Shown here piece after piece: positions 2,168 through 12,261 of a DNA stretch of 32,000 nt. This DNA comes from Pyrobaculum aerophilum str. IM2. GTDB taxonomy: Archaea; Thermoproteota; Thermoprotei; Thermoproteales; Thermoproteaceae. Location of the stretch: positions 240,001-272,000 of the forward strand of contig NC_003364.1 of the NCBI RefSeq assembly GCF_000007225.1, given 5' to 3'. The translations under genes and the position numbers were made by a program. The notes beneath the pieces are model-generated. The model had not been told where the DNA came from. It ran no database searches and saw nothing but the letters and a program-made list of their open reading frames with translations. Numbering within the stretch: position 1 is the stretch's first letter; the number at the start of each line of letters is the position of its first letter.

Positions 2168-3250
2168 ATGAGAGTCTTGTGGATAAACCATAGATGTCCC
2201 AAGCACCCCCAAGCGGGCGGCGCCGAGGAATACGTCTTTCAGATCTCCAGGAGGCTTGTTAAAATGGGGCACGAGGTGACGCTTCTCGCCGAAAAGCCCT
2301 CAAGCCTGCCAGAGCACGAGGTAATTGACGGCGTCGAGATCGTCAGGAAAGGCGGGTTTTTAACCCTCCATCTTTGGGCGCCCCTATACGTCGCTAAACA
2401 CTCTAGGGAATACGACGTGATTATAGACAATGTAGCCCACGTTTTCCCATTCTACAGCTCCAAATTCACCTTTAAGCCGACGATAGCCGTCGTCCACCAC
2501 GTAAATGGGAAGGCAATCAACAGGGTGATGCCCCAACCTCTGCACTTTCTAGGCATAGCCGCCGAGAAAAGCCTGCCCCACATGTACAGGAGCTTTATAG
2601 CCGTTTCACGTTCTACAGAGGAGGACCTCATTAACCTCGGCGTTAATCCCGACAGAATCTCTGTCGTGTATAATGGAGTCGATCACGAGGTATACAAACC
2701 CGGCGAGAAGTCCGAAAGACCCCTCGTGCTGTGGCTCAACAGGTTTGTGAAGTACAAAAACCCAGACCACGCCGTAAGGGCTTTCTCTATTGTAAAGAAA
2801 AAGATTCCCGAGGCTCTCTTCGTGATGGCCGGAGACGGGCCTGAAAGGCCAAGGGCCGAGAGGCTGGCTAAACAGCTCGGCGTAGAGGTCGAATTCGTTG
2901 GGAAGATCTCTGTCAGAAGGAAGGTCGAGCTCTTGCAGAGAGCTTGGGTATGCGTATACACGTCGGAGATCGAGGGGTGGGGATTAGTGGCATTAGAGGC
3001 AGCCGCATCCGGAACCCCTTGCGTAGGCTACGCCGTGGGAGGGCTAAGGGAGTCTATAATAGACGGCGTCACGGGGTTCCTAGCAAGGCCGGGGGATATC
3101 GGCGACCTTGCCAATAAGATAGTGAGGATTCTCAATAACGCCGAGTTGCTTAAACGGCTGACTGAAAACGCATTTAGATATGCCCAGAACTTCGACTGGA
3201 ATAACTCCGCTGAGAGATTTCTAGAAGTTATTAATAGCGTAACTCAGTGA
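2168..3250 (+). CDS. GT-B fold glycosyltransferase (group 1 / GT4-like)
   Basis: MRVLWIN start. C-terminal EIEGWGLVALEAAASGTPCVGYAVGGLRESI block resembles the E-x7-E motif region of GT4 enzymes. Starts 7 nt after the upstream stop. Confidence 0.85.
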   Translation: MRVLWINHRCPKHPQAGGAEEYVFQISRRLVKMGHEVTLLAEKPSSLPEHEVIDGVEIVRKGGFLTLHLWAPLYVAKHSREYDVIIDNVAHVFPFYSSKFTFKPTIAVVHHVNGKAINRVMPQPLHFLGIAAEKSLPHMYRSFIAVSRSTEEDLINLGVNPDRISVVYNGVDHEVYKPGEKSERPLVLWLNRFVKYKNPDHAVRAFSIVKKKIPEALFVMAGDGPERPRAERLAKQLGVEVEFVGKISVRRKVELLQRAWVCVYTSEIEGWGLVALEAAASGTPCVGYAVGGLRESIIDGVTGFLARPGDIGDLANKIVRILNNAELLKRLTENAFRYAQNFDWNNSAERFLEVINSVTQ

Positions 3251-4068
3251 GCAAGCCTTTAGTAACAATAATAGTACCAACATTTAACTCGGAAAAAACA
3301 CTACAATTATGCTTGGAATCCATACGGAAGCAAACTTATAAGAACATAGAAGTTATCGTAGTTGACAACTACAGCACTGACAGCACTGTTAGCGTTGCAA
3401 AAAAGTATGACGCTAAGGTTATACAGGTACGCGGCGAGAGGGCCAGGGCAAAGAACATAGGCTTGAGACATGCATCTGGGAAATACGTTCTTTTCATTGA
3501 CTCCGACATGGAACTCACGCCCAGGGTTGTAGAGGAATGTGTCAGAACGGCGGAATCTAACCCTAAAATAGCAGGTATTATAATTCCAGAGGTGACAATA
3601 GGCAGTAATTATTGGTCACTGGTAAGAAATTTTGAGAGGAGCTTTTATGTAGGTACGCCAATAGAGTCTCCAAGGTTCTTCAGAACAGACCTAGCATTAA
3701 AAGCAGGAGGTTTTGACGAAGATATAGTGTTTTACGAAGAGGCCACACTGCCCTTAAAACTAGAAAGATTAGGTTACAATGTAAGAGCAAGAGTAAAATC
3801 ATATATTCTACATCATGAGGAAAATCTAAATATCAGTAAGTTATTAAGAAAAAGAATTTACTATGCAAAAACAGCAAAGAAATATATTACAAGATATCGA
3901 AGTATCGACAAAGCATATATTACGATACAGATAAGTCCTTTCTACAGGTTTAAACTCTTCTTCAGCGATAAGAGGTTCTGGCAAAGGCCAGATTTAGCGC
4001 TGGGAGTTATCACGCTAAAGATTTTGGAGTATATTATCTCACTAGCAAGCTATCTGGCCACAAAGTAA
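3247..4068 (+). CDS. family-2 glycosyltransferase
   Basis: TIIVPTFNSEKTL...VIVVDNYSTDST...FIDSDMEL (DxD). The GTG start overlaps the upstream stop (GTGA). AT-rich codon usage. Collinear paralogue of 9094..9921. Confidence 0.85.
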   Translation: MSKPLVTIIVPTFNSEKTLQLCLESIRKQTYKNIEVIVVDNYSTDSTVSVAKKYDAKVIQVRGERARAKNIGLRHASGKYVLFIDSDMELTPRVVEECVRTAESNPKIAGIIIPEVTIGSNYWSLVRNFERSFYVGTPIESPRFFRTDLALKAGGFDEDIVFYEEATLPLKLERLGYNVRARVKSYILHHEENLNISKLLRKRIYYAKTAKKYITRYRSIDKAYITIQISPFYRFKLFFSDKRFWQRPDLALGVITLKILEYIISLASYLATK

Positions 4069-4435
4069 AATTGTAATACTATCCTCTTTAGAGTGGATAT
4101 GCGAAATACGCTTCGATGGTGAATTTTTTCACAAAGTTAGTTGAAAACTCCCAGCTAATGCTTTCATATTACCTTGACCAATAAGGGATATGGCGAAAAT
4201 GTCATCACAAGTACCTTTCATAGAAAGAGGCTAAGTTTTAAAAAATGCCGATTTTAAGCAGAATGATGATATGGCGAAATGATATGTATATGCCTACCAC
4301 CATAGTTAATCACCCCAAGGCCGATGCTGTTGAGATAAGCCATAATTACTGTGAGCCAGTTAGGCGTTGAATACATATGATGAGCTATTCGGTTCACCCT
4401 AGTGGGAGAGAGACAACAATATACGGGATCGGGCA

Positions 4436-9921: not shown

Positions 9922-9965
9922 TAATTAACTAATTCCACTTCTAATGCATCTTTTGTCTTAGTTTG

Positions 9966-12261
9966 TCATGTATCTTCCGGCCATCCCCTCTTGATGGAAA
10001 TAATATGCGATAGACGCGCTTTAACGAAGTCAAGAACGTCGCCACCCCTCACCACAGCGCCGTTGCCCACCATGAGACCCCCGGCACCAAGACGGCTCCT
10101 CCGGCCGAGTGTATGTAAACTACATATTCTCCTCCCCTCTCGCTTTAAACAGCCCACTCACGCCGGGATATTTTGTATTGCAGTACTTAGGCCACTGCAG
10201 ATCATAAGGCGTGTAGATATATAAGCTTTAAGCCCCCGTCCACGGGCTTAAGAAATGCCAGCTCTCCCACTGCCACAAGCCACCTGGAGAGGCAGGCCTC
10301 CACCTCAACGCGCCCACCTCTCCACATGAGGCGGCCGACTCTGACCCAGCGGAGACGCGCCACGTCGGCCTTAAGGCTGACGTTGCACCCAGTAGTCCCA
10401 AGGCGCAGTGTGAGCACCCCGCTTATATTCGAGGCATCTCCCTCACATATACGTCGTTAGTTCCCCCCGTAGCTCAACTACACCGCAGGCCACGCCCGAA
10501 TCCCCATAGAGGAAGTCTGTGATGTAATCAAAAGGCCAGATCCCTCCTCGCGCCGCGACTTCTCTGTAAAAACTGTCATATACAATGCCCGCCCCCCTGG
10601 CAAGGCCTTGGCGCTTAAAGGCCGTAAATTTAACCACAGCCGCGGGCACTCCGTCGACGCCATCGCCTCCCTGGACGGCAGACGCGTTGAAAAGACTAAA
10701 CACGGCGGGAGGAGCTCGCCAGCAAAGAGCGCCGGGTCACCGCCCGCCAAAGTCAAAAACCCCGCCTATGCGGCTGAGGGGGCGTCCCCCAGTTTAATTA
10801 ACGTCAGCTCGGATGAGCCCACAACCTCTTCGCCAGCCCGGGAGAAGAAAACCCCGGCCTCCTGCAACGCCAGCCGCTGAAAGCTCCGTCGTATACAACG
10901 CCTACCATAGCTAATTCCCACTACTCCGTACGCCACACGGGGATCTAGGGAGACAGTGGCGAAGGGAAGCCCCGAGTAGTTCAAGTAGTTAAAATAGGCA
11001 AAATACTGTGAGAAAAGTCCTGTGTAAGTGAGGGAAAGGGCAGGGCCGCCCCAGCTCCTAATCTCCACAATGCCCGTGGGCCTCCACGCGCTTGCCGACG
11101 TCCAAGACGGTCCGCCGCACCGCACCCACTGGGCTCTGAAGTCCCCCATGCCCGGAATCCACAACGATTTCCCTCCGAAATTGGGCAGATCCCAATACGC
11201 CCCCGGGGGGCTCAGCCGCGCACCAATACCCCCACATATCGCCGGAGAAGACTATTGGCGCGTAGAGGGCGAGGGGTATAGGCAAGGCGGCGATTATTAA
11301 CCTCTTGTCCCCGGCGCTGGACAAGACGATGAGGTAGCCGATAAGCGTCAACAAGCCGTTCCAATAAGGTTGCCGGTAGAGCCTGGCCAATATGTCGCTC
11401 ATAGAGAGTAGAAAATCTATGTTTACAGTAGAGGTCAGCAGGGCCCCCACCGCTACTATAGACATGCCCAAAAGCGCAACGCCGCCTCTGCGCCTAACAG
11501 CCGCAACTGCCGCGGCGAAAACCACTGGCAGAAAGCCGTAGTTCAAAACGCCGTGTGTAATCTTCTCGAAAACATCGCCCGGGTAGTAAAAGTTGAGAAC
11601 CAAGGCGCTGAGGACGTCAACGCGACGTATCCCCTCCGTCACGCCGAAGGTGGCAAGCGCCGCCCCGCTGGCTACGGCAAAGAGGAGCCAGCGCCAAGAG
11701 ATCCCGCGGGGGAGGCGCCAGAGCGTTATAATCAGCGCCGCGACGGCAAAGACGGCGTAGAACCTATAGCTCGCCATCCCGAGGACGAGGGCCAGCCCCA
11801 GGGCGTAGGCCCGGCGCCCCTCCAGCGCCCCCAGGAGGAGGTGAAGCGCCAGGGGGAAAAGGGCGTATTCAAAACGGAACTGAATGTCTCTGGGCTGGTT
11901 GACGAACAAGGGGTTGAAGACGTAGAGAAGGGCGATCAGCCAGCCCCACCGGGAGAACCTGCCCAGAAAGAGGGAGGCGGAGAGGTACGCAAGGGCAACG
12001 GGTAGGCCCAGGGCCAGCGTTTGCAACAGCTTGTAATTACCCCCTGAGGCGGCGTAGAGGAGCCAGTATAAATACAGCTTCCCCACGTCCACTTCGCTGA
12101 AAATCTCAGTATTAGGCCACAGCTCAGTGGCCCTTAAAAACAAGCGCGCGTCCAGCGTCTCGAACTGCTCCGCTAGAAACAAATACCCCGGCGATAGGGC
12201 AAAACGCCACACCGACCCTAAAAACAAGGCAACGGGCAAGCGCCAGCTCTACACGGCGCAT
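9966..12261 (-). pseudogene. frameshifted, 3'-truncated GC-rich paralogue of the 914-aa membrane protein
   Basis: Five minus-strand ORF fragments are collinear with 6298..9042: 11058..12239, 10766..11164, 10443..10703, 10202..10417 and 9966..10157. Shared blocks include SPGY(L/V)FLAEQFE, LWPNTEIFSE, NQPRDIQFRFEYAL, ATFGVTEGIRRVDVL, MWGYWCA, VEIRSWGG and SQYFAYFNY. The fragments alternate between frames. About 140 C-terminal codons, including the last TM helix, are missing. Confidence 0.8.

Follow-up and report, generated by a model that had tools for sequence, protein, structure and literature searches.

We analysed a stretch of 32,000 nucleotides from Pyrobaculum aerophilum str. IM2 (assembly GCF_000007225.1, contig NC_003364.1, positions 240,001 to 272,000 of the forward strand; hereafter "the window", numbered from its first letter), which contains a probable surface-glycosylation locus where an AT-rich island of four genes adjoins homologues of two of them. 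The island genes, all on the + strand, are GT2_273 (3247..4068), a family 2 glycosyltransferase (GT2) with the canonical DSD motif (PF00535, E-value 9.5e-33); GT4_374 (4436..5560), a family 4 glycosyltransferase (GT4) recognised by its GT4 domains and 65% identical to proteins of Saccharolobus islandicus and Acidianus; an FkbM-family methyltransferase (5595..6314; TIGR01444, E-value 1.8e-22, above cut-off); and Mem914 (6298..9042), a 914-residue membrane protein for which an AlphaFold2 (AF2) model and Foldseek comparisons predict a GT-C fold, and which we call the "A" copy or Mem_A. To their right lie GT2_275 (9094..9921, + strand), a resident GT2, intact and inverted, which is the conserved partner of the membrane GT-C protein (71% and 94% identical to its counterparts in the relatives L004 and L007, respectively), and a pseudogene of the resident GT-C membrane gene (9973..12261, - strand; the "G" copy or Mem_G), with 15 indels relative to the L007 gene Mem912 and cut off after codon 803.

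An earlier note on this DNA, made from the sequence letters, had described the block 3247-9042 as AT-rich beside a GC-rich segment 9094-12261. The calculated G+C content (GC) confirms the step: in 500-nt windows it is 33-48% across 3501-9000 versus 57-63% across 10001-12000. The GC of third codon positions (GC3), determined per gene over the open reading frames (ORFs) of the window, is 0.38 for GT2_273, 0.29 for GT4_374, 0.38 for FkbM and 0.40 for Mem914, while the remaining 19 ORFs range from 0.44 to 0.73, all above the four island genes (next door, GC3 is 0.63 in GT4_360, 0.65 in GT2_275 and 0.73 in the 5' part of the pseudogene). On its left the island ends abruptly at the 4-nt overlap of GT4_360 and GT2_273 (3247-3250), and its right edge lies just 3' of the Mem914 stop codon. 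On the other side of the step the description needs correction, for the pseudogene is truly GC-rich but GT2_275, with 51.7% GC, is near the window mean of 49%. The GT2, GT4 and FkbM calls of the note are borne out by Pfam and NCBIfam, and the 914-residue protein matches neither. A tRNA search and a domain scan of the ORFs found no tRNA or integrase as a mechanism of integration.

One metagenome scan and context look-ups supplied relatives of the locus. Two independent contigs from metagenomes (L001, JGI 3300030446; L002, ENA ERR1254308) are 99.9% identical to the window or slightly above, and L003 (GCA_038893875.1) is ~99% identical. L007 matches window 1-862 at 93.6%, lacks 863-9065 and has the sequence from 9066 onward, with 98.4-99.8% identity over the right flank (11652-23138); it carries an intact 912-residue membrane gene (Mem912) followed by GT2_279. 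The more distant L004 (57% GC) carries, in this order, a homologue of the 754-residue sequon-rich glycoprotein gene (described below) divergent to Mem909, Mem909 itself, GT2_275 (overlapping it by 49 nt), a convergent GT4_361, GT2_305 and a gene for 116 residues; these flank genes are the same as those of the window, and the island is missing. The left anchor of the locus is a conserved gene for 118 residues (552..908, + strand), 65% identical to the 116-residue product of L004 and 88% to that of L007. It is followed by GT2_311 (1225..2160, + strand; PF00535, E-value 3.7e-26; GC3 0.53), a resident GT2 that has a hydrophobic C-terminus and is of the polyprenyl-phosphate-sugar synthase type (ArnC/AglJ/PgfS-like). 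In NCBIfam it comes closest to ArnC, PgfS and AglJ, each below cut-off, and its orthologue in L004 is 38% identical. Next comes GT4_360 (2168..3250, + strand), a resident Agl16-like GT4 (PF00534, E-value 4e-41; NCBIfam Agl16, E-value 3e-32, below cut-off), 58% identical to GT4_361 of L004. L007 has a single gene, GT4_371, where the window has GT2_311 and GT4_360, and the 3' end of GT4_371 is 82% identical to the last 70 nt (3') of GT4_360. The AT-rich block is an insertion into this locus, absent from both L007 and L004, and the GC-rich membrane gene is the resident, because these island-free relatives carry that gene intact in the same synteny. The acquired cassette proposed in the earlier note agrees with this synteny check, in which both relatives have the same flanking genes and no island. 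The block is a polymorphism of presence and content at one locus among close relatives, with a composition atypical of the host.

The database relatives of the island genes point in the same direction. GT2_273 is a member of a large and widespread archaeal family (more than 1000 proteins), with 54-76% identity to the best 120, and one relative (72%) is encoded on a 38%-GC contig that also encodes PaREP1. The best named relatives of GT4_374 are from Sulfolobales (S. islandicus and Acidianus, 65%; Metallosphaera, 54%), and the FkbM protein is 67% identical to the product of an S. islandicus gene that adjoins the GT4_374 homologue of that species, in a locus of 32.5% GC among insertion sequence elements. 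Closest relatives in another lineage, here S. islandicus for GT4_374 (65%) and FkbM (67%), are what is expected of an exchanged island, and the idea that the AT-rich genes would group with another lineage holds for these two, which are nearest to low-GC Sulfolobales. From the Sulfolobales-like GT4-FkbM pair and the GT2_273 relative on the 38%-GC contig we infer that the cassette is a mosaic from lower-GC lineages. In L003 (17247-18070, corresponding to window 3247-4068) a 2-bp insertion at window position 3454 splits GT2_273 into ORFs of 71 and 186 residues; there GT2_273 is frameshifted while the resident membrane copy is less decayed, and different strains have thus lost different parts of the locus. 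A 38%-GC Thermoproteota metagenome-assembled genome (MAG), Ca. Culexmicrobium cathedralense (JANZKC010000001.1, 2318-12277), contains a co-directional operon with GT2_311-like, GT4_360-like, FkbM-like, GT2_275-like (54%) and GT2_273-like (56%, C-terminal part) genes and a gene for a 1261-residue relative of Mem914. To judge from the gene content, the whole set looks like a conserved functional module.

The opposite-strand copy of the 914-residue gene, reported in the earlier note with at least four frameshifts and ~140 C-terminal codons missing, is real and carries more lesions than were counted. It is ~60% identical to Mem914 over the first ~370 codons, after which the tblastn alignment alternates between frames -1 and -2 and crosses stops. 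Relative to the intact L007 allele it has 15 indels, of which 13 break the frame, and its 3' end is truncated by 109 rather than ~140 codons; the last 31 of the missing codons survive in inverted orientation at 9059-9154, and the intervening 238 bp are deleted. Five of the 15 indels (-2, -15, -1, -1 and -8, at codons 712-803) are common to L003, and the other ten (+1, -60, +1, +1, -10, -1, +1, -19, -1 and -1, at codons 13-642) are absent from it; nine of these ten also occur in L001 and L002, the extra C at 10760 being found in the window only. The frameshifts are not assembly errors, because the two independent contigs carry all indels but this extra C. With an intact orthologue in L007 and frame-breaking lesions reproduced across assemblies, the G copy qualifies as a pseudogene, and the proposal that the resident membrane gene is displaced and decaying stands: the gene is intact in L007 and L004, with 15 indels in the window. 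At the protein level, G and the L004 membrane protein are 62.6% identical, A and G 56.3% (63% in the transmembrane (TM) module), and A and the L004 protein 55.6%; the membrane protein of a further relative, L005, is 36-39% identical to the A, G and L004 copies. The two copies in the window are thus not each other's closest relatives, as they would be after a recent duplication. The pairing of G with L004, with A outside, plus the synteny of L007 and L004, identifies the GC-rich copy as the resident orthologue in its ancestral position, and indicates that Mem_A derives from a lineage outside the G+L004 pair and is not a recent duplicate.

The decaying gene is itself a mosaic. Over 9973-10350 the window is the same as L003, both being 15-22% diverged from L007; over 10350-10950 L003 is 0-1% from L007 and the window 2-10.7% from L007; over 10950-12450 the window, L003 and L007 are all within 2% of one another. 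The divergence between L003 and L007 therefore steps from 0-1% to 15-22% at about 10350, inside the decaying gene, and on the scale of the whole locus the left flank and the GT2_275 block of the window are ~6% diverged from L007 and the right side 0.2-1.5%. Divergence steps of this kind at the boundaries are the recombination signature of an exchanged island. The pattern admits two readings side by side, either progressive decay within the window lineage or an old decayed island haplotype that entered L007-like clonal frames by recombination, the crossovers within the gene lying at varying points; under both, the G copy appears to be dead in the island-bearing strains. Gene conversion was considered as the source of a cluster of window-specific substitutions at 10355-10903 and rejected, the variants not matching the A copy.

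The missing end of Mem_G lies on the far side of GT2_275. The final ~31-32 codons of the resident gene persist as a remnant (9059..9154, + strand; tblastn with residues 589-620 of the protein P0004, 66%) that overlaps the start of GT2_275, the same junction of G-type tail and GT2_275 being present in L007 and L004. Window 9066-9920 corresponds to L007 12650-13505 at 93.8% identity, in an orientation opposite to that of both flanks, and the 238 bp of L007 12412-12649 are missing from the window. From the reversed alignment, the absent 238 bp and the + strand tail remnant it follows that the G tail and GT2_275 were inverted as one block, which cut Mem_G after codon 803. GT2_275 now starts 52 nt 3' of the Mem914 stop codon, and in L007 the corresponding gene stands directly after the intact membrane gene; the inversion recreated the ancestral order of membrane gene and then GT2_275, now with the imported gene. 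L004, L005 and L007 likewise pair GT2_275 with a membrane gene, and in Ca. Culexmicrobium the two share an operon. An AT-rich filler of 51 nt between the GT2_275 stop codon and the pseudogene breakpoint (9922..9972) has no homology to L007 and is plausibly the distal spacer of the island carried along by the inversion. No significant inverted repeat was found at the inversion borders (9042-9066 and 9920-9975) and no recombinase domain among the scanned ORFs, so that the locus lacks the border inverted repeats and adjacent recombinase that mark a site-specific invertible switch or shufflon. We also attempted on paper to derive the window from the state of another relative, L006 (see below), by a second homologous inversion; this derivation does not reproduce the window, and because of that a separate non-homologous inversion is needed. 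Inside the resident tail remnant, at 9068-9076 and ~20-26 nt 5' of the GTG start of GT2_275, there is a TTTTTATA motif, a putative archaeal TATA box that might provide GT2_275 with a promoter of its own.

GT2_275 was taken in the earlier note for a full-length paralogue of GT2_273 that may be losing function. The two are homologous but distant (36.8% identity over 223 residues, E-value 6e-36) and belong to different GT2 families, and genes of both types coexist in the Ca. Culexmicrobium cluster, which speaks against the displacement of the resident GT2_275 by the imported GT2_273. The motifs in question, NSD versus DSD and HTKN versus PTFN, are present in the sequences as described, but their interpretation as signs of decay does not hold up. 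The GT2_275 ORF (PF00535, E-value 3.5e-25) is intact in all five strains (window, L001, L002, L003 and L007), and the ratio of nonsynonymous to synonymous substitution rates (dN/dS) is 0.18 versus L007 and 0.11 versus L004. At the DxD position the window and L003 have NSD, L007 has SSD and L004 has NGD, only the last Asp being conserved, and the NGD and SSD versions occur in strains with an intact system; because of this variation across the family, NSD is best regarded as a family trait and not as decay. The His of HTKN (P11H) is due to a single-nucleotide polymorphism (SNP) at 9125, present in the window only, with Pro in L001, L002, L003 and L007. Compared with L003, the GT2_275 gene of the window differs at 7 nonsynonymous and 2 synonymous sites, with a SNP density of ~1.1% versus 0.2-0.4% in neighbour genes, and the changes of the window lineage at residues conserved in L003, L007 and L004 comprise P11H, E to V in YFERLSY and D to E in NEDYD. 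A nonsynonymous excess is found in every gene compared between the window and L003 (e.g. GT2_311, 4:0; Mem914, 5:1), and relaxed selection on GT2_275, considered on the grounds of its substitution ratio, was rejected since the signal is not specific. GT2_275 has been retained and re-coupled to the imported gene, and is not obviously decaying.

The Mem914 family is functionally uncharacterized and very small, with five protein clusters in a set of 5.8 billion proteins. When 1.84 billion representative proteins were searched with a profile, 124 relatives emerged, 27 of them at E-values of 1e-30 or below, mostly of 850-1400 residues and aligning over the N-terminal ~550 residues, some with CBM_4_9 or CBM_35. 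For five family members no Pfam match was obtained even at E-values up to 10, nor any NCBIfam match, and by sequence Mem914 does not fall into any curated GT-C family of these two databases; sequence-profile searches of the PDB gave no useful match, and none for the TM part, and a scan of GTDB genomes with the family profile gave no match. An AF2 run with 5 sequences was unusable (predicted local distance difference test (pLDDT) 47.5), whereas an alignment of 32 sequences yielded a model (pLDDT 86.9, predicted TM-score (pTM) 0.83) with a TM module (residues 10-374), an ectodomain (385-877) ending in beta-sandwiches like those of carbohydrate-binding modules (CBMs), and a C-terminal TM helix (878-913). 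Foldseek identified mycobacterial AftD as the top match in the PDB (6wby, E-value 1.9e-17, query TM-score (TMq) 0.51), followed by ArnT (5ezm, 5f15), STT3 (8b6l_I, 6s7t_A), PglB (5ogl) and CBM6/36 modules, and the model displays the N-terminal polytopic membrane module of the GT-C fold. Residues E46 and E49 (in LAEQFE), located in the first loop just after TM1 (helix 10-37), are conserved in at least 90% of the 32 sequences. On the strength of the model, Mem914 is predicted to be a GT-C glycosyltransferase whose acceptor would be a glycan on the outer side of the membrane. To judge from AftD, ArnT and STT3, and from the ArnC/AglJ-like GT2_311 nearby, Mem914 and Mem_G may take their sugar from a polyprenyl- or dolichyl-phosphate carrier and pass it on with the help of their CBM-like ectodomains.

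AftD itself consists of a GT-C core and CBMs and has decaprenyl-phosphate-arabinose as its postulated donor (bioRxiv 10.1101/2019.12.22.885152). Mem914 resembles it in predicted architecture, in which an N-terminal polytopic GT-C module precedes a large extracytoplasmic domain containing CBM-like beta-sandwiches, but the sequence identity is ~10% with no Pfam, NCBIfam or PDB sequence match, Mem914 has 914 residues as opposed to ~1400 and ends in a single C-terminal TM helix, and nothing points to an acyl-carrier-protein partner. A second comparison is with the "three-component" extracytoplasmic glycosylation systems, in which a GT2 works with a GT-C protein, as in GtrB/GtrC, ArnC/ArnT and CsbB/YfhO. 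As in these, several lineages show genetic coupling between a small GT2 and a membrane enzyme of the GT-C type, and an ArnC/AglJ-like GT2 (GT2_311) is present in the same locus. Unlike in these, the best matches of GT2_275 are the non-ArnC families TIGR04283, EpsD and MftF (all below cut-off), it has one C-terminal hydrophobic segment instead of two, and no flippase was identified. The locus exposes a very rare archaeal family of AftD-like GT-C proteins, for which Pfam holds no model.

The two membrane copies have exchanged sequence. Within the AT-rich Mem_A a GC-rich patch (6990..7056, + strand) is 95% identical to the resident copy over 60 nt, compared with 56% amino-acid identity of the pair overall, and is attributed to gene conversion; the tract reaches 7079 in L006, and the metagenome contigs L016-L018 break at 7037-7044, within the patch region. 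L006 (FLYM01014998.1) encodes an intact hybrid of 925 residues with A-type codons 1 to ~402 (99% identical to the window) and an L007-like G-type remainder, followed by GT2_275, and its switch point lies inside a 17-nt identity at codon ~402. The protein P0004 (nr, "Pyrobaculum sp."), from a separate dataset, is 99% identical to the L006 hybrid, with GKA versus GKS at the junction. Chimeric assembly of L006 was considered and is unlikely, since the identity at the junction is just 17 nt and a protein from another dataset is 99% identical. In the AF2 model, the hybrids switch where the TM module meets the ectodomain. Such hybrids would be expected if the two oppositely oriented copies recombined by inversion in a genome whose G gene was still intact; the reciprocal product, with a G-type 5' and an A-type 3' part, was not found among the five family clusters. 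In DNA the two copies are ~65% identical (64.6-68% by blastn), with one 17-nt and one ~65-nt identity tract. We speculate, while giving the idea little credence, that the inverted pair of GT-C paralogues acts as a natural domain-shuffling device that recombines at codon ~402 and flips GT2_275 as well. Were this so, an imported catalytic module would be joined to resident carbohydrate-binding ectodomains, giving new surface-glycan specificities, e.g. for virus escape; and the window-type inversion and the L006-type chimera would be two independent rearrangements that both set GT2_275 behind an A-type 5' module, which would imply selection for the coupling. In any case, natural hybrids swapped at a domain boundary are ready-made for asking which module determines donor and which acceptor specificity.

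Taken together, these results make it likely that the window contains a strain-variable surface-glycosylation locus in which a foreign cassette was inserted, an inversion re-coupled GT2_275, the resident Mem_G is decaying and the paralogues exchange sequence. The ancestral order, preserved in L007 and L004, is flank gene, GT4, the convergent GT2_275 and Mem_G, and a divergent sequon-rich glycoprotein gene. A four-gene AT-rich cassette entered the spacer that separated the convergent GT4 and GT2_275; the Mem_G tail and GT2_275 were then flipped, probably by a non-homologous inversion with the 238-bp deletion, and Mem_G, presumably redundant from then on, has degraded by five indels shared with L003 and ten more on the branch of the window. 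Homologous recombination appears to have carried the haplotype from one clonal frame to another, and exchange between the paralogues left the patch in Mem_A and, elsewhere, by crossover at the boundary of TM module and ectodomain, the intact hybrids. Several observations weigh against this history. No close relative or donor of Mem_A was found among the 5.8 billion proteins, in which its family forms five clusters, and neither an inverted repeat nor a recombinase accounts for the inversion. L003 keeps a 715-codon ORF of the G copy (P0003), which could still yield a truncated protein, and the function of Mem_A and non-function of Mem_G are predictions from sequence. The window-specific substitutions clustered at 10355-10903 reach 10.7% per 150 nt, more than simple recent decay predicts, and may instead reflect mosaic recombination. 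GT2_275 has ~3 times the SNP density of its neighbours with several changes at conserved residues, so some early relaxation of constraint is conceivable. Finally, the organism labels conflict, the L003 MAG being named "Desulfurococcaceae archaeon" and P0004 "Pyrobaculum sp."; the PaREP1-type protein encoded in the window (see below) is of help for the placement.

The explanation closest to the earlier note, that the cassette functionally displaced both GT2_275 and the resident membrane gene and that we see the pair in mid-decay, with GT2_275 also becoming a pseudogene, we regard as unlikely, although its half concerning the membrane gene is right. It could draw on the 7:2 substitution count and raised SNP density of GT2_275 versus L003 and on the three changes that hit conserved residues (P11H and those in YFERLSY and NEDYD); yet the nonsynonymous excess is general to the window-L003 genes, P11H does not occur in L001 and L002 despite their 99.98% identity to the window in the rest of the sequence, NSD is usual in the family, and the ORF is intact in five strains with the low dN/dS values given above. 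Moreover, GT2_273 is just 37% identical and its type is found together with a GT2_275-type gene in the Culexmicrobium cluster, and the inversion restored the order of membrane gene and then GT2_275 behind Mem_A; GT2_275 was retained and not displaced.

More improbable still is that the inverted GT-C paralogues form a reversible recombination switch for ectodomains and for the orientation of GT2_275, the "pseudogene" being a silent cassette. That the A and G copies are mutually inverted, that the intact chimeras of L006 and P0004 fit an inversion crossing over at the domain boundary (codon ~402) with junctions that differ between datasets (GKS versus GKA), and that there is a conversion patch at which metagenome contigs break would all suit a switch. 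However, the G copy of the window can supply no working ectodomain, as its 3' end is gone and 13 of its indels break the frame, the reciprocal product is missing from the five clusters, the inversion borders have no inverted repeats and the scanned ORFs no recombinase, and copies of ~65% DNA identity with two short identity tracts favour rare events. Least credible of all, to the point that we give it hardly any weight, is that the AT-rich copy is an in-genome duplicate that drifted to low GC, or that L007 and L004 have lost an island that was ancestral. A and G are indeed clear homologues (56% overall, 63% in the TM module) from a very small membrane family, and the left side of L007 has itself been replaced (GT4_371 for GT2_311 and GT4_360). 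But A falls outside the G+L004 pair, the three co-located island genes have equally low GC3 and Sulfolobales or low-GC affinities, the compositional edge is abrupt and at gene boundaries, and two independent island-free relatives share the ancestral orientation of membrane gene and then GT2_275.

In the replacement flexible genomic islands described by Lopez-Perez et al. 2014 (PMC4033161), surface-glycan clusters (glycotype, O-antigen, capsule-like) are exchanged by homologous recombination, the cases being from bacteria plus one archaeon. The locus in the window resembles such islands in being strain-variable at a fixed position with conserved flanks and glycosyltransferases for exposed structures, in its atypically low GC and the differing gene sets of relatives (window versus L007), and in sharp divergence steps at the boundaries with no integrase or tRNA. 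It differs in that replacement is incomplete, the resident GT-C gene being left as a pseudogene and its partner recaptured by inversion, in that one recombination boundary lies inside the decaying gene, and in that the host is a hyperthermophilic crenarchaeon while the published cases are mostly bacterial. The event, in which acquired genes replaced a glycosylation cluster and left a pseudogene behind, is ordinary in kind and unusually well resolved. It offers a stepwise view of the replacement of a glycosylation locus in a hyperthermophilic archaeal population, with insertion, recapture of the partner by inversion, stepwise pseudogenisation and probable recombinational spread; to our knowledge, comparable detail is known mostly for bacterial O-antigen and capsule loci. 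A literature search for an earlier description in Pyrobaculum returned nothing specific, and what this case adds is the archaeal family of AftD-like GT-C proteins together with its natural hybrids at a domain boundary.

Among the neighbouring genes, the one divergent from the pseudogene (12262..14286, + strand) is very rich in N-x-S/T sequons and encodes a probable surface glycoprotein. It specifies 754 residues in L003 and L007 and is truncated in the window, where a 299-bp deletion at 12733 relative to L003 leaves an ORF of 504 residues (12772-14286; 97% identical to the 754-residue product of L003, 6629-8893), so that a second gene of the locus may have been inactivated in the window strain. 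Further to the right, a segment of 1174 bp (16645-17819) occurs in the window, L001 and L002 but neither in L003 nor in L007, and includes most of a legume-lectin-like ORF (16491-17102; PF18483, E-value 3e-9) and the start of an ORF for 306 residues. An ORF for 112 residues on the - strand (18622-18960) matches only the C-terminal half of the GT4 domain (PF00534, E-value 3.7e-13) and looks like another glycosyltransferase remnant. The product of an 807-residue ORF (21579-24002, + strand; GC ~61% at 23001-24000) shows a weak similarity to gametolysin/M11 peptidases (E-value 7e-5), and at 27650-28204 (- strand) the window encodes a PaREP1/PaREP8-family protein (PF05942, E-value 6.6e-30), a family whose name derives from Pyrobaculum aerophilum.

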